Shown here one piece after another: positions 2,835 to 29,929 of a DNA stretch of 32,000 nucleotides (positions within the stretch are counted from its first letter, which is position 1; each line of letters opens with the position of its first letter). The DNA is taken from assembly GCA_934101225.1 (NCBI GenBank), contig CAKOQK010000005.1, forward strand, positions 27,323-59,322, written 5' to 3'. The stretch is from an uncultured Bacilli bacterium (GTDB taxonomy: Bacteria; Bacillota_I; Bacilli_A; RF39; UBA660). The translations under genes were made by a program, and so were the position numbers. The notes under the pieces were generated by a model. It was not told where the DNA came from and searched no databases. It saw nothing but the letters and a program-made list of their open reading frames with translations.

Positions 2835-3434
2835 ATGTCAAATATATGGAAAATACTTGTTCAAGAAATGTCTAAATCAAACGGTAGTGCTAAAACAGTA
2901 ACAAAAGATTATAAAGAATGGATTGCTTGGCTAAATTATGAGCCAGAATTTGAAAAACAAAGAAAAAATTATTTAATGTCTAGAAAATTTGAAGAACTAA
3001 ATGAATCTGAACAAATTGAGTTAAGCCATTATATTAAATATCAAACATATGCCGATTTATTTAATAAGTATGAAACAAATACTTGTACACAAGAGGAATA
3101 TATAAAAGTATATAATTTTATGAAAATAGAGTCTTTGGAAGATTTAATAATAAGTAAATTAACAGCTGAAGAACTTAATTATGTAAAGAGTGAAATTAAT
3201 AGAATAGAAAATTTATCATTAACAGATTTCGAGAGCGAATATCGTAAATTGAGAGATTCATATTTTAATGAGCAATTAACAATGACTGAAAGATATGTTT
3301 ATTATTTAAGTTCAAGGATAGCAGCATATAGAAATAATATAAGAGTAGAAAATGAAATAAGTGTTCAATTAAAAGAAAATGAGAATATGCGTTACAGAAG
3401 TTATATTTATTCTCAAAATCCTTATAGAAAATAA
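2835..3434 (+). CDS. hypothetical protein (199 aa)
   Basis: Long ORF preceded by GGAGGA (2823-2828), 6 nt upstream of the ATG. No recognisable domain. Confidence 0.6.
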   Translation: MSNIWKILVQEMSKSNGSAKTVTKDYKEWIAWLNYEPEFEKQRKNYLMSRKFEELNESEQIELSHYIKYQTYADLFNKYETNTCTQEEYIKVYNFMKIESLEDLIISKLTAEELNYVKSEINRIENLSLTDFESEYRKLRDSYFNEQLTMTERYVYYLSSRIAAYRNNIRVENEISVQLKENENMRYRSYIYSQNPYRK

Positions 3435-3468
3435 AAATAAAACATAAAATTTTCCTAAAAAATTACAA

Positions 3469-3497
3469 TTGTACAAATTATTAAAATTTGATATTAT
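3469..3497 (+). promoter_or_regulatory. sigma-A-like promoter (TTGTAC - 17 nt - TATTAT, with TGn extended -10)
   Basis: TTGTAC at 3469-3474, a 17-nt spacer, TG at 3489-3490 and TATTAT at 3492-3497. No protein-coding ORF of any size follows before the terminator at 3580-3612. Confidence 0.35.
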
Positions 3498-3503
3498 GAA
3501 TGT

Positions 3504-3612
3504 GTAAGGAAAACTTACATAAAATAAAAAAGGAACGCCTAATTTTGGAATGTTGGGTGATTACCTTTTATGGGAAATGCACCAAAACCCCGTGTTTATG
3601 GTGTTTTTATTT
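3504..3612 (+). ncRNA. candidate ~105-nt small RNA, a possible antisense antitoxin of a type I TA pair
   Basis: Bounded by the promoter at 3469-3497 and an intrinsic terminator at 3580-3612. It contains a 5' hairpin (TGTAAG GAAAA CTTACA) and a locally GC-richer core in otherwise extremely AT-rich DNA. Its 3' end is antisense to the 3' end of the - strand peptide ORF. Confidence 0.25.
3580..3612 (+). terminator. rho-independent terminator
   Basis: CACCAAAAC (3580-3588) pairs with GTTTATGGTG (3594-3603) with one bulged A, around the loop CCCGT, followed by TTTTTATTTT. It could instead terminate the 2835..3434 gene, 146 nt upstream. Confidence 0.45.
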
Positions 3613-3694
3613 TAATATTAATATAGAATAAAATAAAAATAATTATAAATAAATTAATTAAAATAAAATATAATAATTTATTATTCACAACCAT
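3596..3694 (-). CDS. candidate 32-aa hydrophobic peptide MVVNNKLLYFILINLFIIIFILFYINIKIKTP (type I toxin-like)
   Basis: Translated by hand from the - strand. AGAGGTG Shine-Dalgarno at 3701-3695. ATG at 3694, or in-frame GTG at 3688 with an 8-nt spacing. One predicted TM helix plus a K-rich tail; stop TAA at 3598-3596. Too short for the ORF track. Caveat: pure A/T DNA yields I/L/F/N/K ORFs by chance. Confidence 0.3.
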   Translation of the reverse strand: MVVNNKLLYFILINLFIIIFILFYINIKIKTP

Positions 3695-3725
3695 CACCTC
3701 TTTCTATTGCTAGAGTAGAGGTAAT
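3693..3725 (-). promoter_or_regulatory. 5'-UTR hairpin sequestering the SD and start codon of the small peptide ORF
   Basis: On the - strand RNA, AUUACCUCU (plus 3725-3717) pairs over 9 bp (one G-U) with AGAGGUGAU (plus 3701-3693). The latter contains the SD and the AU of the AUG. The loop is 15 nt. Confidence 0.35.
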
Positions 3726-3835
3726 TGCCTAAACAATTAAATGTTCCTTAAGTAATAGAATATCAGAATACTAATTATCAAATCAATATAAAACACGAAA
3801 TTTCATATAAAGAATAATTTCCTTAAAAAATAAAT

Positions 3836-3864
3836 TTGTATTTTTTCATTATATATGATAGAGT
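3836..3864 (+). promoter_or_regulatory. putative promoter of paralog 1 (TTGTAT - 17 - TGaTAGAGT)
   Basis: The same architecture and a conserved TGATAGAGTATA box recur at the same distance upstream of all three paralogs (also 6134-6162 and 8598-8626). Confidence 0.35.
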
Positions 3865-3887
3865 ATATCCTACTTGGAGAAATTAAT

Positions 3888-6095
3888 ATGTTTTGGAGTA
3901 AATTATTTAAAAAGAAAAATAAACTATCAAATGTTGATATTGTAGTAAATAGTTCTTATACTAAAATGCCTTTGCTTGAAGAATTAACTGCTGAAGAACA
4001 AGGATACGTTAATAAACTTAAAGAAGAGTACTTAAATTTTTATGATACCGAAGATAATTATATTGATTTAGATAAAGAACTATTTAATGAAATAAAAATG
4101 TGTCAAGATTTAGCTCTAGATATTATGCATAATGATCATTTTGGACACATTGCAAGTTCAATAATAGATAGTAAAAAACTAGTATATTATTCACATGAAA
4201 TAACCGAAATAAATAACATTTTAAAATATAAATATATTGCCTTAAACGAACTAAGAAAAGATAAAAAATATCTAGCTAAATACATGAGTTTATATGTTCT
4301 AGGAAGAAGAAAAATAAACATATTAAAAGCCCTAGATCATCAAATGAATCTTATTAATAATTTAATAGTTATTGCTGATCAAAGAATATATGATTATAGT
4401 ACTAAAGCAGTTGCCAATTATCCCAAAAATATAAATGAAGATATAGATTATGAATTAGAAAAAAGATATGATATTGTATTAAAAGATTATTTAAATTTAT
4501 TCAATGATTCAAACACACTAAATAAAAAGATAAATAATACCGATAAAATTACATATATGGAGATAATGCTAAACAAATTTGTTTATGAAAATAAAAATTT
4601 AATAGGCAAATTAAAAGAACGTTTAAATGCAATTGCAAATACTGAAATAGAAGAGATAGAAGATCAAAATGATATCATAAGAGATTTAAGAAATATAAAG
4701 ATGTATTTCAATATTTTCGATAAATATGGAAGAAGTATTATAAAAAAAGAAGATTTTGAAGAAATATATCAAGCAATTTTTAATACGATTAATTACTATC
4801 CGTTTACATACGGCATTAGAAGTTATTGTAGAAATGAAGCAAATAAGGAAGAATTAATATTTTATAGCAAAATCATTAAAAGAAAAGCAGAATTATTTAT
4901 AGATAAAAAATCAAAAATATTTGAAACAGGAATTATTAATGATAATATTTATCAAATTCTTTTAAAATTATTTGAATTGGATTCCACAGGAATTATATAT
5001 AATGAAATGTTTATAAAAAATAATTTTGAAGTTTTTGATATGAAATACATAGACTTACTGCTATGTTTAGATAATCTAAATGGATTTTATTTATACTTTA
5101 ATCAAACTAATTTTGAATTATTTGATTATATTATGAGCGCTTTACCAGTTGATCACGACACAATTAAAAGAAATTTATTTAAATATATTATCGGCTTATG
5201 TGACAAAACACAATTTGAAGATATTGATATAGATAGAGAATATTTTCTCGATAAATATTGTTTTAATGTTTCCAATATTTATGAAATGAAATTATATTAT
5301 CAATTATATAAAGAAAATATTAACTTTAGTTATTTACCATTACTAAATGAAACATGTGATATGGATAAATTTATTAATTATATCAATAAAAGTTGTCACG
5401 ATAAAACAGTACTCTTACCAGAAGGAACTAAAGAATTAGAAATATATGTTGATAAATCATATAATGGTATAAAAATATATTTAAATAACGATATTTCTGA
5501 CGTAAGATTTTATGGCAATGATATTGATTATAAAAAGTTAAAACACATTAAAATTTATCTGCCATTAGACTTTAATAAAATAAATATTAATTTTATCGTA
5601 GAAAATGAATTAAATTATAATGCAAATTCTCCTAAAGCAAGAATTTTAAATAAACAAGCATTGTTAGCAATCATTGAAAAAATTGGTTCAACATTGGTCT
5701 TACCAAAAAAGATATTTAGTGTATCTAATTCGTCAGAAGATAATCAAAAATTGTATAACGATCTATATTCACTATTTTATGGTTTTTATAAAAGTGTTAA
5801 ATATTTTATTGAAAAGTCAAATTCAATTAAAGAATCTGATAGTAGCGAGTTATTTAGCACATTGTTTAACAACATAATAATTTTCGAAGAAAATTCTAAT
5901 GAATATAAAATTAATAATGATTTATTTGATAAAGAATCAATAAATGAAGAAATACATAGTGATTGTAATAATAATATTCTTAAGAGCTATGAAAAAGCCT
6001 TAAAAGATTTTGTCATCAAATTAATAAAATATAAAAATTATAGAAATTTAAAAATAGAACAATACATTAGCTCATTAAAAAGAAAAACTAAATAA
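3888..6095 (+). CDS. large hypothetical protein, paralog 1 of a tandem three-member family (735 aa from the ATG at 3888)
   Basis: Starts MFWSKLFKKKNK like the other two copies and is preceded by GGAGA (3876-3880). The tracked start at 3855 would lie inside the conserved promoter box. About 80 percent identical to copies 2/3 over the first ~180 aa, with scattered conserved islands later. Confidence 0.8.
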   Translation: MFWSKLFKKKNKLSNVDIVVNSSYTKMPLLEELTAEEQGYVNKLKEEYLNFYDTEDNYIDLDKELFNEIKMCQDLALDIMHNDHFGHIASSIIDSKKLVYYSHEITEINNILKYKYIALNELRKDKKYLAKYMSLYVLGRRKINILKALDHQMNLINNLIVIADQRIYDYSTKAVANYPKNINEDIDYELEKRYDIVLKDYLNLFNDSNTLNKKINNTDKITYMEIMLNKFVYENKNLIGKLKERLNAIANTEIEEIEDQNDIIRDLRNIKMYFNIFDKYGRSIIKKEDFEEIYQAIFNTINYYPFTYGIRSYCRNEANKEELIFYSKIIKRKAELFIDKKSKIFETGIINDNIYQILLKLFELDSTGIIYNEMFIKNNFEVFDMKYIDLLLCLDNLNGFYLYFNQTNFELFDYIMSALPVDHDTIKRNLFKYIIGLCDKTQFEDIDIDREYFLDKYCFNVSNIYEMKLYYQLYKENINFSYLPLLNETCDMDKFINYINKSCHDKTVLLPEGTKELEIYVDKSYNGIKIYLNNDISDVRFYGNDIDYKKLKHIKIYLPLDFNKININFIVENELNYNANSPKARILNKQALLAIIEKIGSTLVLPKKIFSVSNSSEDNQKLYNDLYSLFYGFYKSVKYFIEKSNSIKESDSSELFSTLFNNIIIFEENSNEYKINNDLFDKESINEEIHSDCNNNILKSYEKALKDFVIKLIKYKNYRNLKIEQYISSLKRKTK

Positions 6096-6119
6096 AATTA
6101 TAAAATGTAATATATGATA

Positions 6120-6145
6120 ACACAAACATTTGCTTGTGTTTTTTC
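6120..6145 (+). terminator. terminator-like hairpin between paralogs 1 and 2
   Basis: ACACAA (6120-6125), 8-nt loop, TTGTGT (6134-6139), then TTTTT. The stem is only 6 bp and its descending arm doubles as the -35 of the next promoter. Confidence 0.4.
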
Positions 6146-6162
6146 ATTGTATATGATAGAGT
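6134..6162 (+). promoter_or_regulatory. putative promoter of paralog 2 (TTGTGT - 17 - TGaTAGAGT)
   Basis: Conserved box shared with 3836-3864 and 8598-8626. Confidence 0.35.
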
Positions 6163-6725
6163 ATAACTTACTTAAGGGGAATAAATATGTTTTGGAGTAA
6201 TTTATTTAAAAAGAAAAATAAAATATTTAATACAGAAATAGTTAATAATACATCTTCTAAAATACCTTCATTTGAAGAATTAACTACTAAAGAACAAGAA
6301 TATGTTAGTAACTTAAAAGAAGAATATCTAAAATTTTATGAAAATGAAGATAATTATATTAACTTAGATAATGAACTATTTAATGAAATAAAAATGTATC
6401 AAGATTTAGCCCTAGATATTATGCATAAAGATCATTTAGGTAATATCGTTAACTCAATAATAGACAGTAAAAAACTAGCATATTATTCTCAAAAAATAAC
6501 TGAAATAAATAACACTTTAAAATATAAATATATTGCCTTAAACGAATTAAGAAAAGATAAAAAATATTTAACTAAACATATGGGACTATATGTTTTAGGA
6601 AGAAGAAAAATAAACATATTAAAAGCTTTAGATCATCAAATGAATATTATAAACAATATGTTTGTTATCGCCGACCAAAAAATAATTGATTACTGTACCT
6701 GTGCAATCGCAAACTATCCAAAAAA
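6154..6725 (+). repeat. ~572-nt block apparently identical to 8618-9189 (leader + first 179 codons of paralogs 2 and 3)
   Basis: No differences seen by eye between the two blocks. Identity ends abruptly inside a poly-A run: CCAAAAAAAATCG in copy 2 versus CCAAAAAATATA in copy 3. Confidence 0.8.
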
Positions 6726-8427
6726 AATCGATAAAACCACTGAAAAAGCATTAAATGACAGATACATCGAAGTAGAGAAAGATTATAAAGATTTATTTAA
6801 TTCATCAATTGAATTAGATGATAGTATATCTATTGCAGATGAAATAACATACATGGAAATACTTATAGATAAATTTATATATGAAAATAAAGACTTAATA
6901 AATAAATTGAAAAAACAGTTAGATATAATAGCTTTTAATGAAATAATTGATGCAATGGAGCAACAGGAAAAAATATCAAATCTTAAAAAAATAAAAATGT
7001 ACTATCTTATATTTAACAAATATGGACGAAATCTAATTACCAAAGACGATTTTAATGACCTATATCAAATAATATTTAATGTATATACTTATTTCCCTAT
7101 TAGTAGTGGTTTCACAGAGTATTTTAATAAGAAAGCAAATAAAGACGAACTAATATTATATAGTAAAATAATAAAAGGTAAATCTGAAGCATTCATACTA
7201 AAACAATCAAAAATATTTGAAGCAAATAAAGTTAGCGATAAAGCTTATAGTTTGTTCCTGAAAATTTTCAATTTAACCGAAAGTGATGAAATTTATAAAA
7301 ATATATTTATATATGATGATTTTAATATTAAATTTTTTCCAAATGTAGAATTGCTTTTATCGTTAGATTTTGTAGATGGTATTGATAAGTATTTTGATAA
7401 AAAAGCATTTGACAATCTTCTTAAAATATTTGATAAAGAGCCTTGGATTAGCAAAAATGTCTTAAAAAAAGACTATTATAAATATGTTTTGGGTTTATGT
7501 ACCAATCCTAGTTCAGAACAAGAAAATAGTGAAGAAAAAAAACAATCTTCAATAAATATAGGTGAATTGTCATTGTATTCCGATTCAGAAGAGATTATGC
7601 TTTATTATCTATTATATAAAGACAAAATAAATTTTAATGTTTTGCCATATTTATCAAAAGATTGTGATTTGAGTAATTTTATCAATTATCGTAGGAATTC
7701 TTGCAAACAAGGCAAAGATAAAAGCATTAATATATATATACCAAGCAAAACTAAAACATTATCTTTAAATTTATATACTTTTGGAAAAGATGAAAAAAAT
7801 TTAATAAAAGTGTATGCTAATGAACAATTAGAAAAAATAATAATAGGAAAAGACAACCCATTACTAGAGCAAAAAATACAAATAATACTTCCAGAAGGAT
7901 CTAACTTCATAAGTATTATTTTAAAAAAATTAGAATCTTACGAATTAAGGAAATACGGCTTTTCAGGTACAATTTATAGACTTAGTAAATGTATTGTATT
8001 ACCGAATAAAATTTTTTATATGGAAGACAACATCGAAAATAACAAATGGCTTTTTAATTATTTATTTTATTTGTTTTATGAAAGTGCATTGAGAATGAAT
8101 TATTTTTTTAAAAATGAAGCTAATACAGGGTTTATTTTAGGCAATTATGAAGATCCATTTAGTGATTTATTTCGTAATTTAATAATATTAGAAGAAGACA
8201 ATAATTTATATTCTGTTGGCTACCACAATGTGAAACATTATCCCCGAGAATCTTATGATATAAGTGTTAAAATTAGTAAAGCAAAAGATATTATAGAAGC
8301 GTATAAAATTTATATTGAATATTATATAAAAGATCTTAATATATATAAAAAAGAACTAAAATCTCAATTAATGTATGAAGAAAAGCAAATATCAACAGAG
8401 CCAAAGAAATTAATCAAAAAGGCATAG
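6187..8427 (+). CDS. large hypothetical protein, paralog 2 (746 aa)
   Basis: Long ORF with GGGGA RBS. Residues 1-179 are identical to paralog 3. The C-terminal ~560 aa diverge but keep islands such as LYSKIIK, SKIFE, YKDKINFN.LP and IVLP.KIF. Confidence 0.85.
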   Translation: MFWSNLFKKKNKIFNTEIVNNTSSKIPSFEELTTKEQEYVSNLKEEYLKFYENEDNYINLDNELFNEIKMYQDLALDIMHKDHLGNIVNSIIDSKKLAYYSQKITEINNTLKYKYIALNELRKDKKYLTKHMGLYVLGRRKINILKALDHQMNIINNMFVIADQKIIDYCTCAIANYPKKIDKTTEKALNDRYIEVEKDYKDLFNSSIELDDSISIADEITYMEILIDKFIYENKDLINKLKKQLDIIAFNEIIDAMEQQEKISNLKKIKMYYLIFNKYGRNLITKDDFNDLYQIIFNVYTYFPISSGFTEYFNKKANKDELILYSKIIKGKSEAFILKQSKIFEANKVSDKAYSLFLKIFNLTESDEIYKNIFIYDDFNIKFFPNVELLLSLDFVDGIDKYFDKKAFDNLLKIFDKEPWISKNVLKKDYYKYVLGLCTNPSSEQENSEEKKQSSINIGELSLYSDSEEIMLYYLLYKDKINFNVLPYLSKDCDLSNFINYRRNSCKQGKDKSINIYIPSKTKTLSLNLYTFGKDEKNLIKVYANEQLEKIIIGKDNPLLEQKIQIILPEGSNFISIILKKLESYELRKYGFSGTIYRLSKCIVLPNKIFYMEDNIENNKWLFNYLFYLFYESALRMNYFFKNEANTGFILGNYEDPFSDLFRNLIILEEDNNLYSVGYHNVKHYPRESYDISVKISKAKDIIEAYKIYIEYYIKDLNIYKKELKSQLMYEEKQISTEPKKLIKKA

Positions 8428-8430
8428 ATG

Positions 8431-8565
8431 CAAGTAAAAAAGAGTAGTTAAACAAAACCAAAAGTATCTTAAAATCTCAAAAAATGTTAACCATGTGTAA
8501 ATATTTTAAACAAAATATTTTAAACAAAATATACCTAAATGTTAAATTTATTGATATAATTAAAA
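8431..8565 (+). repeat. repeated 3'-flank/intergenic segment (copy A)
   Basis: CAAGTAAAAAAGAGTAGTTAAACAA...AAAAAATGTTAACCATGTGTAAATATTTTAAA...ATACCTAAATGTTAAATTTATTGATATAATTAAAA recurs at 10853-10974. This copy has an extra internal ~14-nt duplication (ATTTTAAACAAAAT). It ends in an extended -10-like TGATATAAT. Confidence 0.8.
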
Positions 8566-8583
8566 AACTAGTAATATATGATA

Positions 8584-8612
8584 ACACAAACATTTGCTTG
8601 TGTTATTTCTTT
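8584..8612 (+). terminator. terminator-like hairpin between paralogs 2 and 3
   Basis: Same ACACAA/TTGTGT hairpin as at 6120-6139, followed here by TATTTCTTT, a weaker U-tract. Confidence 0.3.
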
Positions 8613-8626
8613 ACATGTGATAGAGT
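8598..8626 (+). promoter_or_regulatory. putative promoter of paralog 3 (TTGTGT - 17 - TGaTAGAGT)
   Basis: Conserved box shared with 3836-3864 and 6134-6162. Confidence 0.35.
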
Positions 8627-8650
8627 ATAACTTACTTAAGGGGAATAAAT

Positions 8651-10831
8651 ATGTTTTGGAGTAATTTATTTAAAAAGAAAAATAAAATATTTAATACAGA
8701 AATAGTTAATAATACATCTTCTAAAATACCTTCATTTGAAGAATTAACTACTAAAGAACAAGAATATGTTAGTAACTTAAAAGAAGAATATCTAAAATTT
8801 TATGAAAATGAAGATAATTATATTAACTTAGATAATGAACTATTTAATGAAATAAAAATGTATCAAGATTTAGCCCTAGATATTATGCATAAAGATCATT
8901 TAGGTAATATCGTTAACTCAATAATAGACAGTAAAAAACTAGCATATTATTCTCAAAAAATAACTGAAATAAATAACACTTTAAAATATAAATATATTGC
9001 CTTAAACGAATTAAGAAAAGATAAAAAATATTTAACTAAACATATGGGACTATATGTTTTAGGAAGAAGAAAAATAAACATATTAAAAGCTTTAGATCAT
9101 CAAATGAATATTATAAACAATATGTTTGTTATCGCCGACCAAAAAATAATTGATTACTGTACCTGTGCAATCGCAAACTATCCAAAAAATATAAACAAAA
9201 ATACAAAATATGTATTAGAAAACAGTTATAATAAAGTAGAGAAAGATTATAAAAAATTATTTAATTCATCAATTAATTTAGATGATAATCTAACAGCAAC
9301 CGACAAAGCAACGTATATAGAAATTATAATAGATAAGTTTATATATGAAAATAAAGATTTAATAGATAAATTAAAAGAACAACTAGATCAAATTGCAAAT
9401 AGTGAAATTAAAGATAAAACGATGCAGCAAGAAATAATAGATAATTTAATGAAAATCAAAATGTACTATAATATATTTAATAAATATAGTCGAAATAAAT
9501 TAACTCAAGAAGATTTCGAAGATCTATATCAAATAATATTTAATGTATATACGTATTTCCCATTTAATAATGGGTTTAAAAATTATTGCGAAATTGAAGC
9601 AAATAAACAAGAATTAAAACTATATAACAACTTCTTAAAATTAAAATTAGAAATGTTTTTCTTAAAAAAGTCAAAAATATTCGAAACAAATATTATAAAC
9701 GATAAAATATATGATCATCTTTTGGAAATCTTTAATTCGAATCAAGTAGATGACTGGCAAAAAACAGGCTTACCTAAAGATAATCTTATAAGTGATTCAT
9801 TTGATATTATAGAATTTGAAAATTTAGATTTACTTTTAACGTTAGATTACCCAAATGGATTTGATTTATATTTTAATGAACCACTTATGTTTGAATGGGA
9901 CAATCTTAATATTTATATTGACAAATATACCATTAGAAAAGAATTTTATAAATACATTTTAGGATCAGATACTTGCATAGAAGATAACATATCATGTGAT
10001 AGCAAAAAATTAAATAAAATAAATAATGATTGCAAATTATTTAGCTTACTGTATAAAGATAAAATAAATTTCAATATCCTACCATTTTTGTTAGAATCTT
10101 GCAGTATAGATAAGCTTGATTGGTACATTTACAAGAGTTGTGATATAAATAAAGATCGTCATATGCAATATCATCAATTATATCTACCAGATAAAACGAA
10201 AAAACTTTATATAGATTATTCAAAAATTAATGTTGGTTTAACAAAAATTTATCTTAATAATGGTTTAAATGAATTAATATTAGAATTGCCTCCATATGAC
10301 TCAAAATATAAAGTTGAAGATACGCAAATTATATTGTCAAAAGATTTAGATCCGTTAAATATTAAGATTAGTATGTCTAACGTATATAATGATTATTATC
10401 TTTATCAACTATATTATGTAATTTTTGAAATTTGTGAAGCTATAGTATTACCTTCAATAATATTCTTTTCCAATAATAATGAGCACAATAATAAAATAAT
10501 TTTTAATTATTTGTATCATTTACTTTATGAATTTTTTATGGTTATAAAAGAATTTAAAACAGGTGAAAATTCTGATTATTATACTATTTTTAGTGAAATG
10601 TTAAATAAACTAGCAACACCATATGAAAAAAATGACCATTTGCCTAGTATTGGCGATCATACATTATTAAATAATCCAGCATTAAACAACCAGAAAAATT
10701 TAAAATACGAAAATAATAATGATATTGAAGAAGCGTATAAACAAGCTATTAAAGATTATATAGAAAAAATTAATAGTGATAAAGATTATTTTAATTTTAA
10801 ATCAGATGAAGAATTTATTAAATTAAAATAG
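8651..10831 (+). CDS. large hypothetical protein, paralog 3 (726 aa)
   Basis: Long ORF whose 5' ~540 nt and ~33 nt of leader are apparently identical to paralog 2. The rest is divergent. Confidence 0.85.
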   Translation: MFWSNLFKKKNKIFNTEIVNNTSSKIPSFEELTTKEQEYVSNLKEEYLKFYENEDNYINLDNELFNEIKMYQDLALDIMHKDHLGNIVNSIIDSKKLAYYSQKITEINNTLKYKYIALNELRKDKKYLTKHMGLYVLGRRKINILKALDHQMNIINNMFVIADQKIIDYCTCAIANYPKNINKNTKYVLENSYNKVEKDYKKLFNSSINLDDNLTATDKATYIEIIIDKFIYENKDLIDKLKEQLDQIANSEIKDKTMQQEIIDNLMKIKMYYNIFNKYSRNKLTQEDFEDLYQIIFNVYTYFPFNNGFKNYCEIEANKQELKLYNNFLKLKLEMFFLKKSKIFETNIINDKIYDHLLEIFNSNQVDDWQKTGLPKDNLISDSFDIIEFENLDLLLTLDYPNGFDLYFNEPLMFEWDNLNIYIDKYTIRKEFYKYILGSDTCIEDNISCDSKKLNKINNDCKLFSLLYKDKINFNILPFLLESCSIDKLDWYIYKSCDINKDRHMQYHQLYLPDKTKKLYIDYSKINVGLTKIYLNNGLNELILELPPYDSKYKVEDTQIILSKDLDPLNIKISMSNVYNDYYLYQLYYVIFEICEAIVLPSIIFFSNNNEHNNKIIFNYLYHLLYEFFMVIKEFKTGENSDYYTIFSEMLNKLATPYEKNDHLPSIGDHTLLNNPALNNQKNLKYENNNDIEEAYKQAIKDYIEKINSDKDYFNFKSDEEFIKLK

Positions 10832-10852
10832 TTAAAGAAAAAAACTAGAAAA

Positions 10853-10974
10853 CAAGTAAAAAAGAGTAGTTAAACAATAACAAGATCATCTTAAAAAAAT
10901 CAAAAAATGTTAACCATGTGTAAATATTTTAAATAAAATATACCTAAATGTTAAATTTATTGATATAATTAAAA
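10853..10974 (+). repeat. repeated 3'-flank/intergenic segment (copy B)
   Basis: Matches 8431-8565 with a few substitutions or indels. Confidence 0.8.
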
Positions 10975-10982
10975 GAATTTGT

Positions 10983-11012
10983 TTGACAAACTCTTTTTTT
11001 ACTTGATATAAT
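10983..11012 (+). promoter_or_regulatory. rpoBC promoter (TTGACA - 18 - TGaTATAAT)
   Basis: Consensus -35 at 10983-10988 and consensus -10 at 11007-11012 with an extended TG. It is followed by a short CCGG/CCGG leader hairpin (11029-11043). The repeat just upstream supplies a second TGATATAAT (10961-10969). Confidence 0.55.
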
Positions 11013-11081: not shown

Positions 11082-14000
11082 GTGGCGTACAAAAAAGCTA
11101 AATTTGGCGATCATGCCGAGAGAATTACATTCTCAAAAACATCTAATAATTACGAATTGGCAGATTTATTAGATATTCAAAAGAAATCATTTGATTGGTT
11201 TCTAACAGAAGGAATAAAAGAGGTATTTGAAGATTTATTCCCAGTAGAAAGTTTCACCGGAAATATTTCCCTAGAATTTGGAGATTATTCCTTTGATGAA
11301 CCTAGATACTCAATTAAAGAGTGCAAAGAAAGAATGCTTACATTCGCAGCACCTTTAAAAGTAGAAGCAAGAGTTTTCATTAATGAAACAGGTGAAGTAA
11401 AAGAACAAGAGGTTTTCTTAGGTGACATGCCTATGATGACTGAAGCTGGAACATTCATTATTAATGGTGTAGAAAGAGTTATTCAATCACAATTAGTAAG
11501 AAGTCCATCTATTTACTTTAAACGTGAAATTGATAAAAACGGTCGTCCAGTAGTTTCTGGAGAAGTTATTCCAAATAAAGGAACATGGCTAGAATTCGAG
11601 TTAGATGCAAGAGATGTTATCTACGTAAGAATTGATCGTACTAGAAAAGTTACAATCACAACACTTTTAAGAGCACTTGGATTATCAAGTGATGAAGCAA
11701 TCAAAGAAGTATTTGGTGAAGATAATTACTTTATCAATAATACATTAGAAAAAGATAGTACTAAAAATACTGATGAGGCTTTAATTGAAATTTATGAAAA
11801 ATTAAAACCAGGTGAACCAGCTACCCTTGATAGTGCTAAGAATCAATTAGTAGTAAGATTCTTCGATAAATTTAGATATGACCTAGCAAAAGTAGGACGT
11901 TATAAATTTAATCGTAAATTAAATGTACTAGACAGACTATTAGGTTGTACACTTGCTGAAAACTTAAAAAATGGTAAAGAAATAATCGCTAAAGAAGGCG
12001 AAGTAATTGATAAAAAACGTTTAGAAGAATTAAGACCATACTTTGCTGATGGATTAAACGTTAAAGAAGTTACAATAAATGAAGATTTAGATACATATAA
12101 CAAGATTCAAGAAGTTGTTGTATATGATAAGAAAGATCCTACTAAGAAAGTTAATATTATTGGAAATGATCAAACTATTGCTGAAAGAAGATTAACTATT
12201 TCTGATGTGTATGCAGCAGTAAGTTATTATTTAAATTTACTTGCAAATATTGGTAATATTGACGAAATAGATAACTTAGGAAATCGTCGCGTAAGACAAG
12301 TTGGAGAATTAGTTCAAACTCAATTTAAAGTTGGTATGGCTCGTATGGAAAGAGTTATTCGTGAAAGAATGACTACTCAGGAATTAGATACAGTTACACC
12401 AAAAACATTAATAAATATTAGACCAGTAACAGCTGCACTTAAAGAATTCTTTGGTTCATCTCAGTTATCAAAATTCATGGATCAAATTAACCCAATTGCT
12501 GAGTTAACAGATAAGAGACGTCTATCTTCTTTAGGACCAGGTGGTTTATCAAGAGACCGTGCTGGAATGGATGTACGTGACGTTAACGAATCACACTATG
12601 GCCGTATTTGTCCAATAGAATCACCAGAAGGTGCAAACATCGGACTTATTACATCACTAGCAAGTTATGCAAAAATTAATGAATATGGGTTTATTACAAC
12701 TCCATATCGTAAAGTAGAAAATAAACATATTTTAGATGAAGTAGTTTATTTAACAGCTGATGAAGAAGCAGATTATTACATAAGTCAATCAACAATCAAT
12801 ATTGATGAAAATAATAATATTGTTGATGAACAAGTAGTTGCCAGACTTAATGGTGAATCAGTTATGGTTAAATCAGATTTAGTTAACTATATTGATGTAT
12901 CACCATCACAAATCGTTTCAATTACAACAAGTTGTATTCCATTCTTAGATCACGATGATGCAAGACGTGCCCTAATGGGTTCAAACATGCAAAGACAAGC
13001 AGTACCTGTATTAAGACCAGAATCACCAATAGTTGGAACTGGTGTTGAATATGTTGCTGCTAGAGATTCAGGATCAACAATCGTTGCTAAAGCCGACGGT
13101 GTAGTAGAATACGCTGATGGTAAAAAAATTGTTATTAAAAACGCTAAAGGAAAAGATGAATATTATTTAGCATCATTCGAAAGAAGTAATGCTGAAAGTA
13201 ATATTTCTCATAACCCAATTGTTAAAAAGGGTGAAAAAGTTCATCGTGGTGAAGTTATCGCTGATGGACCAGCTACTCAAAATGGAGAACTTGCACTAGG
13301 TAGAAACATGGTAGTAGCGTTCATGACATGCAATGGTTATAACTATGAAGATGCCGTTGTATTAAATGAAAAATTAGTTAAAGATGATGTTTATACAACA
13401 TTACATATTGAACATTATGATACAGACTGTCGTGATACAAAATTAGGACCTGAAGAAATTACAAGAGATATTCCAAACGTTGGAGAAGATGCTCGTAAGA
13501 ATTTAGATGCTAATGGTATCGTAAAAATTGGTACTGAAGTACATGAAGGCGATATCCTAGTTGGTAAAGTTACTCCAAAAGGAATGCAAGAATTAACTAG
13601 TGAAGAAAAATTATTACATGCAATCTTTGGTGAAAAAACTAGAGAAGTAAGAGATACTTCACTTAGAGTTGCTCACGGTGCTGACGGAATTGTTCATGAC
13701 GTAAAAGTTTATACAAAAGAAAATTCCGATGAATTAGCTCCTGGAGTTTCAAAAATCGTTCGTGTTTATATAATTCAAAAACGTAAGATTCAAGTCGGAG
13801 ATAAAATGTCAGGACGTCACGGTAATAAAGGTGTTATTTCCCTAATTTTACCAGAAGAAGATATGCCATACTTACCAGATGGTACTCCAGTTGATATTGT
13901 TCTTAACCCACAAGGTGTTCCATCTCGTATGAACTTAGGACAAATCTTAGAGTTACACTTAGGAATGGCTGGTAAAAAATTAGGCGTTAAATATGCAACT

Positions 14001-14759
14001 CCAGTATTCGATGGTGCAACAGTTGATGAAATTAAAGAAGAAATGGCTAAAGCTGGTATGGACTTAGATGGTAAAACAGATCTATATAATGGACGTACTG
14101 GTGAAAAATTCGAAAACCGTGTTGCTGTAGGTGTTATGTACATGATCAAATTACATCACATGGTAGATGATAAAATTCATGCTCGTTCAACTGGGCCTTA
14201 CAGTTTAGTAACACAACAACCATTAGGTGGTAAAGCACAATTTGGTGGTCAAAGATTCGGAGAAATGGAAGTTTGGGCATTATATGCGTATGGTGCTGCT
14301 CATGTATTGCAAGAAATCATGACAATTAAATCAGATGATGTAGTTGGACGTGTTAAAGTATATGAAGCCTTAGTTAAAGGACAAACTCCAAAAGGTGCTG
14401 GAATGCCTGAATCATTCAGAGTATTAATTAAAGAATTCCAAGCATTAGGACTTAATGTTGAAATGATCGACCAAGATGGTGTTGCTCATGAATTAAAAGA
14501 ATTAGAAGCCGAAGAAGATGCTGCATCAGATGCAATTACTATTGATGAAATAGATGCAAAAACTGGTGATATAGTCCATAAAAAAGATGCACCACTTCCT
14601 GAAAACTTTAGAAGACCTGAAGTAAATGCAGATTTAAATGATAATCTAGAAGATGATTATTCAGATGATGATGAAGAAGATGAAGATTTCGATGACGAAG
14701 AACCTGATTTTGAAGAATTAGAAGACATCGAAAACGGAAATCTAGAAGTGGAGGAATAA
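11082..14759 (+). CDS. rpoB: DNA-directed RNA polymerase subunit beta
   Basis: Unmistakable conserved blocks: [61 protein letters not shown] start 8 nt after GGGGTGA. Acidic C-terminal extension. Confidence 0.97.
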
Positions 14760-18566: not shown

Positions 18567-18595
18567 TTGACATTTTTAAGCAAAAATGGTAGTAT
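18567..18595 (+). promoter_or_regulatory. promoter of the AAA+/VWA array (TTGACA - 17 - TGgTAGTAT)
   Basis: Consensus -35 at 18567-18572, 17-nt spacer, extended TG, -10 TAGTAT at 18590-18595. Its position argues against the tracked ATG at 18586 as the start codon. Confidence 0.5.
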
Positions 18596-18618
18596 ATAAC
18601 GCAAAAGAGGGGTATTGG

Positions 18619-20505
18619 ATGAATAAGAATAGTTTTGAATTAACTTTACTTAGTGAAGGACAAATATGGGGTAATGATAAAGAAAGACAATTAGATGTAA
18701 TAAGAAAGTACGGAATAAAAGCTGCAATTACTGATTTATGTATTTTAACAGGTGGTTATTTGTGTGAAGATACTATAGATGAAGATAGATCTTTAACTGG
18801 TAGAACTAGTTGCTTCTGGACTAGATCTGATGATGGCGATAATGATGTCCGCGAGGTCGATGTGGATGGTGATAGGGTCGACGTATACAGGTATAAACGC
18901 TATGGTGCTGTTCGCCCAGCCTTGCAATCTTCTGTAATCTTTTCCCAAATCTCCCCGAACAAAGTGAGTGGATACAATGGAACGGAAGAGGTTGAATTCG
19001 GAAAATATCCTCAAAATGCTGCTGATTCAAGAATGCAAAATATACTAGAGTCAGAGTATAATAGAGGAATGAGTAAAACTGGAAGAAGTTACACATTTGA
19101 TTCTGTAACAGATTATGACTGTGATACAGGATTTAAACCTGTAACCTATGAAGAATACGAATATCAAGGAAAAGCATATATTCGTATAAAAGCAAACTTT
19201 TATTGTGCTGGTTATAAATTCATGCTTTCAAATGGTGTCGAATATAAAAATGGTGATTATGTTTGGGTAGAAGTGTCTCCTGTAAAATGGTTAATAGATG
19301 ACGAAAACAACCAATTAATTTCAAAAAAAGGATTAGTTTCTGGTATAAGATTTCTTGATAAAAGAACTAATTATAAAGGTGATTTTGATAGAACAGAAAT
19401 GAAAGAATATCTTGATAAATATATGGTTAAAGATTTATTTCAATCAGTAGATTTTGAATATTTACAAGATATGGAATATTCAATAGATAAAAGTGAAAAT
19501 ATCAAAAAAACTAATCCATATAATTTAAGTTTTAATAAAGTAAGTGAAGAAGATATAATAAAAGGAGCAATAGAAAGTGGAGTTGCAGTATTTTTACATG
19601 GTCCATCATCTGAAGGTAAATCAGCAAGAGTTAAACAAATAGATCCCTCTTGTGAAATAATATATTTGAGAAATGCTGCTCCAGATAGTTTAAATGGTAA
19701 AAGTGTTTATAATTCAGAAACAGGTGAAATGATAGATGTTCCACCAACTTGGCTAAAAAAATTACAAGCTAAGTGTTCAGAAGAACCAAATAGACTTCAT
19801 ATATTATTCTTTGATGAAATAACAAATGCCTTACCAAGTATTCAAGGTATAGCGTTTAATATAGTTTTAGATCGAGAGGTAAATGGTATTTGGAAATTAC
19901 CAGATAATGCTAGAATAGTAGCTGCAGGAAATGATATGAAAGATTCTCTAGCAGCAAACCAATTAGCAGAACCATTATTTAATAGATTCGCTCACGTATA
20001 CATAAAAACAACTACTGAAAGTTGGTTAAAATGGGCGAGTGAACATAATATTCATCCAGCCATATATTCATATATAGCTTATAAAAATGGCGAAACACTT
20101 CGAAGTAAGTATGATGGAGAAAAACCTAATGCTGATCCAAGAAAATGGGAAATGGCTTCTAAAATGCTTTATGCAACAGGAAGTCCAGAAATGTTAAGGG
20201 CATTAGTAGGTGAAGATATAACAAGAGAATTTATTGAGTTTTGTAAACAAGAAGTAATAACATTGGAAGATGTTATAAATAAAAATTATACTGATAAAGA
20301 TATTGAATCATTAAATACCGCCCAAAGATATGCAACTACAATGGGATTATCACAAGTAGAAGAATCAAATTTAGAAATAGTTAGAAACTTTACATCAAAG
20401 TTAGGCTCCGAATTTAAAGCTATATTCGATGCTTTATGGACACATAGCGATGAATCAAGAATAGAAATAATCGCTGAATTAAATATAAATAAAAAAAGAA
20501 GGTGA
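18619..20505 (+). CDS. fusion protein A1: variable N-terminal DUF6273-like domain + MoxR/AAA_5-type AAA+ ATPase (628 aa from the ATG at 18619)
   Basis: RBS AAAGAGGGG lies 7 nt before the ATG at 18619. Walker A GPSSEGKS; Walker B ILFFDEITNA (DEINRA-like); sensor-1 IVAAGND; PLFNRF Arg-finger region. N-domain motifs TKAAITDLCILTG, FWTRSDD, AVRPAL, VEFGKYPQ, VKWLIDD. Confidence 0.85.
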   Translation: MNKNSFELTLLSEGQIWGNDKERQLDVIRKYGIKAAITDLCILTGGYLCEDTIDEDRSLTGRTSCFWTRSDDGDNDVREVDVDGDRVDVYRYKRYGAVRPALQSSVIFSQISPNKVSGYNGTEEVEFGKYPQNAADSRMQNILESEYNRGMSKTGRSYTFDSVTDYDCDTGFKPVTYEEYEYQGKAYIRIKANFYCAGYKFMLSNGVEYKNGDYVWVEVSPVKWLIDDENNQLISKKGLVSGIRFLDKRTNYKGDFDRTEMKEYLDKYMVKDLFQSVDFEYLQDMEYSIDKSENIKKTNPYNLSFNKVSEEDIIKGAIESGVAVFLHGPSSEGKSARVKQIDPSCEIIYLRNAAPDSLNGKSVYNSETGEMIDVPPTWLKKLQAKCSEEPNRLHILFFDEITNALPSIQGIAFNIVLDREVNGIWKLPDNARIVAAGNDMKDSLAANQLAEPLFNRFAHVYIKTTTESWLKWASEHNIHPAIYSYIAYKNGETLRSKYDGEKPNADPRKWEMASKMLYATGSPEMLRALVGEDITREFIEFCKQEVITLEDVINKNYTDKDIESLNTAQRYATTMGLSQVEESNLEIVRNFTSKLGSEFKAIFDALWTHSDESRIEIIAELNINKKRR

Positions 20506-20511
20506 AAATAA

Positions 20512-22410
20512 ATGATGGATTATGAATTAACTTTACTTAGTGAAGGACAAATATGGGGAAATGACAAAGAAAATCAATTAGAAGTTCTAAAAAAATATGG
20601 AACAAAAGCTGCAATTACAGATTTATGTATTTTAACTGGTAGTTGTTTACGTAAAGATACTATAGATGAAGATAGATCTTTGGCTGGTAGAACTAGTTGG
20701 TTTTGGACTAGATCTGATGATGATGATAATGATGTCCGCGCGGTCAATAAGGATGGTAATGGGGACATCGGTTTTAGGTATGGACGCTATGCTGCTGTTC
20801 GCCCAGCTTTGCAATCTTCTGTAATCTTTTCTCAAATCTCCCCGAACAAAGTGAGTGGATACAATGGAACGGAAGAGGTTGAATTCGGAAAATATCCTCA
20901 AAATGCTGCTGATTCAAGAATGCAAAATATACTAGAGTCAGAATATAAAAGAGGAATGAGTAAAACTGGAAGAAGTTACACATTTGATTCTGTAAAATAT
21001 AATGACTATGATACAGGATTTAAACCTGTAACTTATGAAGAATACGAATATCAAGGAAAGGAATATATTCGTATAAAAGCAAACTCTTATTGTTATAATG
21101 GCGATAAATTCATGCTTTCAAATGGCGCCTGTTATAAAGATGGTGATTATGTTTGGGTAGAAGTATCACCGGTTAAATGGTTGATAGATGATAAAGCAGG
21201 AATTTTAATTTCAAAAAAAGGATTAGTTTCTGGTATAAGATTTCTTGATAGTAAAACTGATTATGAAGGTGATTTTAATAGAACAGAAATGAAGGAATAT
21301 CTTGATAAATATATGGTTAAAGATTTATTTCAATCAGTAGATTTTGAATATTTACAAGATATGGAATATTCAATAGATAAAAGTGAAAATATCAAAAAAA
21401 CTAATCCATATAATTTAAGTTTTAATAAAGTAAGTGAAGAAGATATAATAAAAGGAGCAATAGAAAGTGGAGTCGCTGTATTTTTACATGGTCCATCATC
21501 TGAAGGAAAATCAGCAAGAGTTAAAGAAATAGATCCAACTTGTGAAATTATATATTTAAGAAATGCTACTCCAGATAGTTTAAATGGTAAAAGTGTTTAT
21601 AATTCAGAAACAGGTGAAATGATAGATGTTCCACCAACTTGGCTTAAAAAATTACAAGCTAAATGTGACCAAGAGCCAAATAGACTTCATATATTATTTT
21701 TTGATGAAATAACAAATGCCTTACCAAGTATTCAAGGAATTGCGTTTAATATAGTTTTAGATCGAGAAGTAAATGGTATTTGGAAATTACCAGATAATGC
21801 CAGAATAGTAGCTGCAGGAAATGATATGAAAGATTCTCTAGCAGCTAATCAACTAGCAGAACCATTATTTAATAGATTTGCTCATGTATATATCAAAACA
21901 ACTACTGAAAGTTGGTTAAAATGGGCAAGCGAAAATAACATCCATCCAGCAATATATTCATACATTGCTTATAAAAATGGTGAAACACTTCGAAGTAAGT
22001 ATGATGGAGAAAAACCTAATGCTGATCCAAGAAAATGGGAAATGGCTTCTAAAATGCTTTATGCAACTGGAAGTCCAGAAATGTTAAGGGCATTAGTAGG
22101 TGAAGATATAACAAGAGAATTTATTGAATTTTGTAAACAAGAGGTAATAACATTAGAAGATGTAATAAATGAAAATTATACTGATAAAGATATTGAATCA
22201 TTAAATACAGCCCAAAGATATGCAACAACTATGGGATTATCGCAAGTAGATGAAGCCAATTTAGAAATAGTTAGAAACTTTACATTAAAGTTAGGCTCCG
22301 AATTTAAAGCTTTATTCGATGCCATATGGACACACGGTGATGAATCAAGATTAGAAATAATCGCCGAGTCAAAACTTATTGAAAAATCGTTAGGAGGTAA
22401 AAAGCTATAA
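20512..22410 (+). CDS. fusion protein A2: variable N-domain + MoxR/AAA_5-type AAA+ ATPase (632 aa)
   Basis: Same architecture as A1, with a near-identical ATPase half and a distinct C-terminal tail (AESKLIEKSLGGKKL). AAGGTGA RBS. Confidence 0.88.
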   Translation: MMDYELTLLSEGQIWGNDKENQLEVLKKYGTKAAITDLCILTGSCLRKDTIDEDRSLAGRTSWFWTRSDDDDNDVRAVNKDGNGDIGFRYGRYAAVRPALQSSVIFSQISPNKVSGYNGTEEVEFGKYPQNAADSRMQNILESEYKRGMSKTGRSYTFDSVKYNDYDTGFKPVTYEEYEYQGKEYIRIKANSYCYNGDKFMLSNGACYKDGDYVWVEVSPVKWLIDDKAGILISKKGLVSGIRFLDSKTDYEGDFNRTEMKEYLDKYMVKDLFQSVDFEYLQDMEYSIDKSENIKKTNPYNLSFNKVSEEDIIKGAIESGVAVFLHGPSSEGKSARVKEIDPTCEIIYLRNATPDSLNGKSVYNSETGEMIDVPPTWLKKLQAKCDQEPNRLHILFFDEITNALPSIQGIAFNIVLDREVNGIWKLPDNARIVAAGNDMKDSLAANQLAEPLFNRFAHVYIKTTTESWLKWASENNIHPAIYSYIAYKNGETLRSKYDGEKPNADPRKWEMASKMLYATGSPEMLRALVGEDITREFIEFCKQEVITLEDVINENYTDKDIESLNTAQRYATTMGLSQVDEANLEIVRNFTLKLGSEFKALFDAIWTHGDESRLEIIAESKLIEKSLGGKKL

Positions 22411-22802
22411 TGAAAAATAAAAAAGAAATTTTCTTATCTTATATTAAAGCAAATGTTGTACCAATATTAGTTGATTTTATGTCTGGTAAAGATCTGCCTG
22501 ATGCTACTATATTGTCATCTAATATAGATGTAAAAGAATTAAACGGTCATTATGAGGGAAAAAATTTTGTTCCGCCCAAATGGCTTAATGAAATACTTAA
22601 TTCAAATACCAGTAAAATACTAGTGATTGATAAAATAGATATAATTTCTAAAGAAGAACAAATGAAATTTGTTGAAATATTAAAATATCGAAAAGTATCT
22701 ACCTTTGAATTCCCAAAAAACTGTATAATAATTGTTACTGCAAATGAAATTAACAAAGATAAAATAAATGAAGAAATACTTTCATTAGTAGCACAAATTT
22801 AG
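22410..22802 (+). CDS. B1: 130-aa minimal AAA-core paralog with degenerate Walker A and Walker B (predicted inactive)
   Basis: Aligns by eye to the ATPase core of the A proteins. VPPKWLNEIL matches VPPTWLKKLQ; ILVIDKID matches ILFFDEIT; IIIVTANE matches RIVAAGND. The P-loop position reads FMSGKD. TAATG stop/start overlap with A2. Confidence 0.75.
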   Translation: MKNKKEIFLSYIKANVVPILVDFMSGKDLPDATILSSNIDVKELNGHYEGKNFVPPKWLNEILNSNTSKILVIDKIDIISKEEQMKFVEILKYRKVSTFEFPKNCIIIVTANEINKDKINEEILSLVAQI

Positions 22803-22811
22803 GAGTAAATT

Positions 22812-24206: not shown

Positions 24207-24246
24207 ATTAAATATAATAAATGTTTCAAAAAGAAGGTGAAAATAA

Positions 24247-28033: not shown

Positions 28034-28425
28034 TGAAAAACAAGAAAGAAATATTATTATCATATATTAAAGCGAATGTTGCACCAATATTAGTTGATTT
28101 TATGTCTGGTAAAGATCTGCCGGATGCTACTATATTGTCATCTAATATAGATGCAAAAGAATTAAACGGTCATTATGAGGGAGAAAATTTTGTTCCGCCC
28201 AAATGGCTTAATGAAATACTTAATTCAAATACCTGTAAAATACTAGTGATTGATAAAATAGAAACAATTTCTAAAGAAGAACAAATGAAATTTATCGAAA
28301 TATTAAAATATCGAAAAGTATCTACCTTTGAATTACCAAACAACTGTATAATTATTGTTACTGCAAATGAAATTAGTAAAGATAAAATAAATGAAGAAAT
28401 ATTTTCATTAGTTGTACGAATTTGA
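28033..28425 (+). CDS. B2: 130-aa degenerate AAA-core paralog
   Basis: About 90 percent identical to B1, with the same TAATG overlap with the preceding gene. Confidence 0.75.
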   Translation: MKNKKEILLSYIKANVAPILVDFMSGKDLPDATILSSNIDAKELNGHYEGENFVPPKWLNEILNSNTCKILVIDKIETISKEEQMKFIEILKYRKVSTFELPNNCIIIVTANEISKDKINEEIFSLVVRI

Positions 28426-28435
28426 GGTGTAAGCT

Positions 28436-29889: not shown

Positions 29890-29929
29890 ATTAGATTTAA
29901 TAAATGATTCAAAAAGAAGGTGAAAATAA

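Follow-up and report, generated by a model that had tools for sequence, protein, structure and literature searches.

What kind of gene family stands ahead of rpoB in this bacterium, and what might its members do for the cell? The stretch of DNA analysed here, referred to throughout as the window, comprises 32,000 nucleotides from an uncultured Bacilli bacterium, and within it three long genes on the same strand lie in tandem, between a block of small genes on the 5′ side and rpoB (11082-14759) on the 3′ side. Copy 1 (3888-6095, + strand) encodes 735 amino acids, copy 2 (6187-8427, +) 746 and copy 3 (8651-10831, +) 726, and all three products are rich in I, K, N, L, Y and E. The start of copy 1 is placed at 3888 from the conserved MFWS and a ribosome-binding site (RBS); the first in-frame ATG, at 3855, falls within a promoter box. 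An earlier reading of the letters, here called the original prediction, had described three tandem paralogs with conserved islands of sequence, and these open reading frames (ORFs) and islands were found, with pairwise identities of 46-57%.

The genes belong to a previously undescribed family that is restricted to one lineage and present in multiple copies in a small clade of uncultured Bacilli from the human gut, whose DNA is AT-rich. These bacteria have reduced genomes and are frequent in the guts of non-industrialised (Hadza) people; their dealings with hosts, phages and neighbouring microbes are, to our knowledge, almost undescribed. In such a genome, at least 6-8 individually promoted genes of 2.2 kb, all given over to one recombining family, signal where selective pressure lies. 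The reading that we favour, and to which we would give an even chance of being right, is that the family encodes individually transcribed binding proteins of variable specificity with a conserved amphipathic or basic N-terminal peptide and a helical head, the function being one that we infer from the features described below.

Distribution, segment exchange and promoters of the family

A word-indexed search of 5.8 billion proteins returned more than 476 homologs, all of them nameless and without a Pfam domain and nearly all from gut assemblies in ENA; an exhaustive profile search of 1.84 billion representative proteins gave only 69 clusters. Within the GTDB species genomes, 18 loci were found in about six metagenome-assembled genomes (MAGs), in each of which the family occupies several loci and numbers at least 6-8 copies; the carriers are labelled as uncultured Bacilli (Hadza gut), "uncultured Tenericutes UMGS1661" and "Bacillales UBA6331". 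Further copies are dispersed between housekeeping operons, including suf, uppS-cdsA-rseP and pfkB-smr-obg, and some members of the family are truncated or frameshifted. A search of the literature on these MAG names, and on BspA or gene-conversion families in Tenericutes, found nothing relevant.

The slot between the HAD gene and rpoB holds two copies in one related strain (L020), three in the window and in L021 and L023, and four in L019, whose copy-2 ortholog is 98% identical to copy 2 of the window. The original prediction spoke of genes inserted at this site. That wording proved too strong, since none of the related genomes examined has an empty slot and, at locus L079, a distant relative in single copy lies about 6 kb upstream of the equivalent MTS-rpoB-rpoC block. 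Base composition was also considered as a sign of foreign DNA: GC content is 21% up to about position 11000 and 29-36% across rpoB and rpoC and onward, with 21% for the family itself and 31-35% for rpoBC, but the core-like genes upstream are also at 21-25%, and a foreign origin on this ground was rejected. No copies were found in IMG/VR, the INPHARED phages, the PLSDB plasmids or PHROGs, and an origin from phages or plasmids was rejected because these viral and plasmid collections are empty of relatives.

The original prediction had recognized a constant head and a variable body in a tandem array, and the pattern is stronger than was first seen, with a gradient of entropy, exchange of segments and two to four copies per strain. 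Over the N-terminal ~180 amino acids, copy 1 is 66-82% identical to the other two, which are 100% identical to each other. Across the family, column entropy is 0.62 bits for the N domain and reaches 2.2 bits in the repeat-like region of the tail. The identity of copies 2 and 3 extends into the DNA as a perfect tract of 572 nt (6154-6725 = 8618-9189, + strand) that extends from the -10 box as far as codon 180, and beyond its end nucleotide identity falls abruptly to ~75%. When the two copies are compared with their orthologs in L019, dS is 0.14-0.15 inside the tract and ≤0.007 downstream of it, and this discordance shows the tract to have a history different from that of the rest of the gene. 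It is a gene-conversion or recombination tract, and a long identical stretch of promoter and head is in turn an obvious substrate for conversion and crossing-over.

Similar exchanges are seen across loci. Some pairs among the 38 distinct full-length members have N domains that are ≥97% identical yet C domains that are <60% identical; in reverse pairs, C domains that are ≥90% identical are joined to N domains of only 57-84% identity. When residues 1-180 (N), 181-480 (M) and 481 to the end (C) are each typed at 90% identity, the types mix freely. For example, C2 is found with N4-M4, N13-M4 and N1-M9, C3 with N1-M1 and N14-M3, and M3 with C9, C12 and C3; in the window, copy 1 is typed as N2-M2-C1, copy 2 as N1-M1-C8 and copy 3 as N1-M3-C9. 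Because segment types recombine across loci, a sharp-edged identical tract is shared and dS is discordant between segments, which are the signs of a gene-conversion family, the family evolves by segmental gene conversion or recombination together with unequal crossing-over. Conversion and crossing-over between paralogs are also the reason that strains differ in copy number and in their combinations of N, M and C types. This mosaic structure provides a natural experiment for the mapping of specificity.

Could this variability reflect nothing more than relaxed constraint, the genes being neutral or decaying duplicates of a cytoplasmic gene that was ancestrally single-copy? The damaged copies mentioned above and a dN/dS of 0.3 to ~1 in the middle and tail (from small counts) are compatible with this, as is the appearance of distant relatives as single copies at each locus. 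Purifying selection on the head is clear (dN/dS 0.1-0.3), however, and most copies are intact over ~730 codons with promoters and RBS conserved in many strains and samples; moreover, the retention of at least 6-8 copies of 2.2 kb by a reduced genome argues for selection. We regard simple decay as highly improbable. Copy 1 is the least changeable member between strains: its orthologs in L003, L005, L019, L021 and L023 have diverged little, dN/dS lies at 0.07-0.7 over most segments, and the ORFs of the family are intact in many strains.

Each copy is also preceded by its own promoter-like sequence. A box, TGATAGAGTATA, occurs exactly three times, once ahead of each copy, against a chance expectation of 0.45 (none of 100 shuffles reached three), and it reads as an extended -10 promoter element. 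Ahead of copy 1 (3835-3864, +), a -35-like TTTGTA is followed by a 17-nt spacer and TGATAGAGT as the extended -10, and these elements align position for position with a canonical TTTGCA-N17-TGCTAGAAT promoter found ahead of other paralogs. The predicted promoter of copy 2 (6134-6162, +) has TTGTGT, a 17-nt spacer and TGATAGAGT. It overlaps a hairpin with a T-run (ACACAAA..TTTGTGT, 6119-6145, +, -7.3 kcal/mol), which is terminator-like for copy 1 and whose 3′ arm supplies the -35 (TTGTGT) of copy 2. The same arrangement is seen ahead of copy 3 (8580-8626, +), where a hairpin at 8580-8607 (-9.1 kcal/mol, z = -3.6) overlaps TTGTGT at 8598-8603, with TGATAGAGT at 8618-8626.

An alignment of 100-nt upstream regions from 40 distinct members of the family, drawn from 27 loci, places these elements in a wider context. 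The majority of the leaders share TTTGTGTTTTTTC-N-TGATAGAGTATAACTTACTTAAGGGGAAT-N-ATG, and a subset has TTTGCATAAATTTTGCTTTTATGCTAGAAT in identical register, which corresponds to a canonical -35, a 17-nt spacer and an extended -10 (TGnTAnAAT). It is because of this register with canonical promoters that TGATAGAGT is taken as a probable extended -10, with TTGTGT as its -35. Since each paralog has its own predicted promoter, each is likely to form a separate transcription unit. The hairpin (ACACAAACATTTGCTTGTGT with a T-run) is restricted to copies that are preceded by another copy, with its 3′ arm doubling as the -35, and folding of the copy 1 leader finds no hairpin (-2.2 kcal/mol, z = -0.29). 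The statement in the original prediction that every copy has a leader with a hairpin and a box needs to be amended on this point: the box is present before all three, the hairpin before copies 2 and 3 only. Most simply, the hairpin would be the terminator of the preceding gene, and the leader a sigma-70 promoter that is fused to this terminator in copies lying downstream of another copy. Slipped-strand phase variation was also considered and found to be unsupported, the T-tract in the promoter spacer being T5-T6 and A-runs in the coding sequence ≤5.

Protein architecture and the link to leucine-rich repeats

Copies 1-3, searched whole and split into domains, have no match in Pfam, NCBIfam, PADLOC, PHROGs or the sequences of the PDB. 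An AlphaFold2 model of copy 2, built from an alignment of 28 sequences, reached a pLDDT of 77 and a pTM of 0.69. In the model, residues 1-24 are disordered, residues 30-480 are helical, residues 492-579 form short paired beta-strands and the C-terminus is again helical; two long helices are joined by a beta-hairpin at an invariant LYVLGRRKIN. A separate model of residues 460-746 (pLDDT 79) agrees with the full model. When the full model was compared with the PDB and BFVD, and the C-terminal model with the PDB, Foldseek returned nothing with E <0.02, and TM-scores were all ≤0.2. The family is a candidate new domain family because it has neither a Pfam model nor a structural neighbour.

The head itself has features that extend across the superfamily. 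A short amphipathic or basic peptide stands at the N-terminus (FWxxLFKKKNK, IWHKLFKKKNK, ILNKLLKKQK and similar), and ~15 residues after it there is a motif resembling IPxRE(D/E)F, which takes the form IPxxEEL in the window family. A helical head of this kind, followed by a variable tail in arrayed genes, recalls the LXG-type polymorphic toxins of the type VII secretion system (T7SS, T7SSb), in which a constant, helical N-terminal secretion domain of ~180-200 amino acids precedes variable C-terminal toxins, and the invariant L-G-R-x-K turn between two long helices adds to the likeness. No match to the Pfam LXG model (PF04740) or to WXG was found, however. In all paralogs the C-terminal parts share homology with one another and are not unrelated toxin folds, the intergenic gaps of 91-223 nt hold no ORF and hence no immunity genes between copies, and no T7SS genes were seen in the ~10 neighbourhoods examined. 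An assignment to these toxins is scarcely credible on this evidence.

The variable tail is where a connection to known proteins appears. The strand region of the AlphaFold2 models consists of paired short strands with a period of ~25 residues (514-579, pLDDT mostly >80). In copy 2 the units IYIPSKTKTLSL, KVYANEQLEKIII and QIILPEGSNFISI begin at residues 514, 540 and 564, and a fourth, CIVLPNKIF, at 602, giving three to four units with the pattern IxLPxxxxxLxI. Distant full-length relatives of 650-790 amino acids and ~25% identity carry a recognizable module at the same place: matches to LRR_5 (PF13306), the BspA-type leucine-rich repeat (LRR) model, were found in seven of ten at E ≤1.4e-4, over residues ~500-620. 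Five of the ten reach the gathering score of 27.7 bits (at 28.7-35.8 bits) and two fall just below it. A comparison by hhalign of the profile of the window clade (A3) with that of the LRR_5-bearing relatives (A4) gave a probability of 99.95 and E = 1.2e-38 over residues 4-580, a span that takes in the first repeat units, with residues 509-577 of copy 2 aligned to the LRR_5 segment of the relative P0163. The tail is probably LRR-derived; we use this term, and do not call it a member of LRR_5, because the window copies fail the Pfam model. The original prediction had called the proteins unrecognisable, which holds for direct and fold searches and is now partly resolved through these distant homologs.

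Several other observations were made at the loci of the distant relatives. A Band_7 (SPFH/stomatin-like) gene adjoins or lies near the LRR_5-bearing members in two arrangements (L078 5267-6043; L079 12223-12972; L080 3549-4298), two of the relatives being directly beside such a gene, and this proximity may reflect synteny or a functional link. Unannotated neighbours of 664 and 757 amino acids at these loci were tested as possible paralogs and are not family members.

Where in the cell would such proteins act? The original prediction noted no signal peptide or transmembrane (TM) segment, and this agrees with the hydropathy profiles: the highest 19-residue Kyte-Doolittle values in copies 1-3 are 1.07-1.9, none of these maxima is N-terminal, and the N-terminus, MFWSNLFKKKNK, has no hydrophobic h-region. 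By Kyte-Doolittle analysis and inspection of the sequences, no signal peptide, TM segment, lipobox or wall anchor was found anywhere in the superfamily. A cytoplasmic or peripheral location would seem more plausible than export, because no member has an export signal, cell-walled relatives included.

This bears directly on the proposal that the proteins are exported or surface-exposed BspA-like adhesins, providing antigenic or adhesive variation towards the host, IgA or partner microbes, with the N-terminal peptide as a non-classical export or anchor signal. In its favour, the homologs carry LRR_5, a module characteristic of BspA-type surface proteins, the N-terminal peptide is both disordered and conserved, and lineage-specific, multi-copy conversion mosaics in gut-dwelling organisms labelled 'Tenericutes' resemble antigenic-variation families of Mollicutes and others. 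Set against this are the lack of any of the four signals just listed, which extends to cell-walled Firmicutes relatives (loci with murG, ftsQ and SLT), the presence of predicted promoters on all copies where one expression site with silent cassettes might be looked for, and the absence of long homopolymer or repeat tracts for phase variation. On balance we consider a surface adhesin unlikely.

The comparison with individual families is instructive in both directions. BspA-type LRR proteins, such as BspA of Tannerella forsythia, LrrA of Treponema denticola and TvBspA of Trichomonas vaginalis, have in common with the window family the LRR_5 module that stands in the distant homologs where the window proteins have their ~25-residue strand units, and the expansion of a family in a host-associated microbe. 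Many TvBspA proteins also lack a signal peptide. The window copies differ in having only three to four degenerate units, which fail in Pfam and Foldseek, in the ~480 residues of novel helical domain before the repeats and the helical domain after them, and in lacking a signal peptide, a Por/T9SS or wall-anchor domain and a long solenoid. MgpB/MgPar of Mycoplasma genitalium, Vlp of M. hyorhinis, vlsE of Borrelia and msp2 of Anaplasma are similar as lineage-specific, multi-copy conversion mosaics with strain-specific repertoires. These families consist of exported lipoproteins or adhesins and usually have one expression site with silent cassettes, or phase-variable promoters; in the window, by contrast, each copy has a conserved promoter, and neither an export signal nor a phase-variation tract is evident.

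Possible roles of a recombining family

The favoured reading, variable-specificity binding proteins, brings these features together as follows. Each protein consists of the N-terminal peptide with IPxxEEL, a helical head (residues ~30-180), an increasingly variable helical middle and a variable tail whose ~25-residue strand units are homologous to the BspA-type repeats of the distant relatives. The peptide and constant head would dock the protein, either on an invariant partner or at the inner face of the membrane; the LRR-like tail would give each paralog a distinct binding specificity. Segmental gene conversion and unequal crossing-over both diversify and homogenise the repertoire. The original prediction had placed the genes among effector, immunity or specificity families. 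Of these labels specificity is the most reasonable; effector or immunity functions are unsupported, since no toxin, enzyme, immunity, LXG or other secretion-domain, or PADLOC match was obtained and no small immunity genes lie between the copies.

A number of observations weigh against this reading. Neither the full nor the C-terminal model matches an LRR or any other structure in the PDB (all E ≥0.6), and copies 1-3, whole or split into domains, have no LRR_5 match even at E ≤10; the LRR assignment thus stands on homology to the distant relatives, and ligand binding by copies 1-3 is putative. The hydrophobic moment of the N-terminal peptide is modest (0.35-0.46), and association with the membrane is suggested by its sequence pattern only. 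At the loci examined, the distant relatives look single-copy and keep synteny with core genes, which could indicate a conserved cellular role and not variable specificity. Values of dN/dS >1 rest on very few substitutions and are no demonstration of positive selection. Finally, MAG assemblies can mis-join repeats, yet the same arrays recur in independent assemblies.

The family is new and its kind is familiar: a recombining, variable multigene family, apparently of LRR type, in a host-associated bacterium with a reduced genome. Tandem clusters of LRR receptors that evolve by gene conversion, including plant NLR/R-gene clusters and TLR1/TLR6, offer a parallel. The likeness lies in the tandem arrays, in the pairing of a conserved signalling or docking part with a variable LRR part and in the exchange of sequence between paralogs (e.g. 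PMC6771003, PMC2077338); the difference is that the window family is bacterial and has no NB-ARC/STAND NTPase, no TIR and no similarity to them in sequence or fold. If the tails are indeed ligand-binding LRRs, the family would provide a bacterial case of receptor-cluster evolution through gene conversion.

A further proposal is an intracellular role against phages, in which the proteins would be anti-phage or abortive-infection sensors: the LRR-like tails would recognize phage proteins and the N-terminus and head would act on the membrane, as an analogue of CC-LRR proteins without an NTPase. In keeping with this, the proteins are predicted to be cytoplasmic, a variable LRR-like tail is paired with a constant amphipathic N-terminus, the tandem arrays are diversified by conversion, as plant R-gene clusters are, and differ in content between strains, and a type I toxin-antitoxin-like module, described below, often stands at the array head. 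However, no PADLOC-DB v2 model was matched by any copy (E ≤1), and effector domains, among them NTPases and nucleases, were likewise not found. Defence genes are usually patchy across wide taxa through horizontal transfer, whereas this family is vertical, multi-copy and confined to one clade; it is lacking in phages and plasmids, and its copies are dispersed among housekeeping operons and not in recognizable defence islands. We judge the defence role to be distinctly unlikely. A more specific version, in which a cytoplasmic, membrane-poised analogue of CC-LRR receptors without an NTPase senses phage or partner proteins through conversion-diversified tails and is tied to the type I toxin-antitoxin modules, we hold to be very doubtful.

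The array-head module and other features of the window

The gap of 420 nt ahead of copy 1, "noncoding" at first sight, is itself conserved as an element. At several loci it stands first in an array, and it is also found independently of the family: of the more than 50 instances recovered from related MAGs and metagenomes, roughly a third open an array of the 730-amino-acid family. In the window it occupies 3470-3790 and has the anatomy of a new type I toxin-antitoxin locus, with toxicity and antisense control being putative. The candidate antitoxin is a small structured RNA of ~110 nt (3504-3613, + strand; -28.7 kcal/mol, z = -2.9), with a predicted promoter at 3470-3497 and a predicted terminator at 3580-3613, and its P2 helix has compensatory changes at four pairs. 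It converges on a toxin-like hydrophobic ORF of 30 amino acids (VNNKLLYFILINLFIIIFILFYINIKIKTP; 3596-3688, - strand), the 3′ end of which is overlapped by the terminator of the RNA; the Shine-Dalgarno sequence (SD) of this ORF is sequestered in a hairpin at 3696-3722, and its promoter lies at ~3757-3786. Most long instances of the module have a peptide ORF of 23-34 amino acids. In all, 33 distinct versions are kept across very divergent DNA, with the consensus M[NS]K[KR], ~20 hydrophobic residues and K. The module has no match in Pfam or Rfam; a search of the window with Rfam gave nothing at gathering thresholds and only one chance-level match in 3400-3900, and no tRNAs were found in the window.

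The two most conserved blocks of the module are inverted repeats ~190 nt apart that flank a terminator, an arrangement also expected of an invertible switch like that of cwpV. Such a switch was rejected because the inner segment is inverted in none of 70 MAG and metagenome instances and because the convergent pair of small ORF and small RNA explains the region better. The type I systems of Firmicutes (Fst/RNA II par, TxpA/RatA and BsrG/SR4) are close in several respects: the hydrophobic peptide ORF of 23-34 amino acids with a sequestered SD, the convergent structured RNA whose terminator lies over the 3′ end of the ORF, and the many copies per genome. The module differs in that its two RNAs share an inverted-repeat block, which makes their 5′ regions similar and not complementary, and in lacking a Pfam or Rfam match. 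We know of no type I toxin-antitoxin family described in this lineage, and the module would add a new one to it. Tandem head-to-tail duplicates of the module were also observed (L007 12941-13720 and L016 9202-9948, and at L041, L050 and L060).

Further features lie at the edges of the array. On the 3′ side, rpoB starts with GTG and is preceded by a perfect predicted promoter (10983-11012, + strand; TTGACA-N18-TATAAT with an upstream TG, TGnTATAAT). A duplicate of the region upstream of rpoB is found between copies 2 and 3 (8430-8565, +, matching 10855-10975; repeat families D4-D6, 75-98% identity), and these ~120-135 nt are a footprint of the tandem duplication. The small-gene block on the 5′ side contains a DUF218 protein, an MTS-type "ybxB-like" methyltransferase (1709-2293), a HAD_SAK_2 phosphatase and an orphan of 199 amino acids (2835-3434, +). 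This orphan, which has no match in Pfam, NCBIfam, PADLOC or PHROGs, is present in strains L002, L004, L005 and L023 and missing from L019, L020 and L021; in L019 the HAD gene neighbouring its slot is also truncated. An ORF of 88 amino acids (84-350, +) has a weak match to HEC-02B of PADLOC (E = 0.0067, 14.5 bits) that is probably due to chance.

A second tandem array, unrelated to the 730-amino-acid family, lies downstream of rpoC (18586-31834, + strand). It is missing from related strains L021-L023, where a metS or GT2 gene follows rpoC. The array holds five paralogs of ~632 amino acids that are 86-93% identical and have no Pfam match; in the one that was scanned (18586-20505, 639 amino acids), the C-terminal half matches the ATPase family phrog_1297 of PHROGs. 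Also present are two ORFs of 130 amino acids and DUF2201_N metallopeptidase/VWA-like proteins, one of them intact (464 amino acids) and one split (270 + 135 amino acids). These genes are arranged in a repeated module of two 632-amino-acid genes, one 130-amino-acid ORF and one DUF2201 gene.

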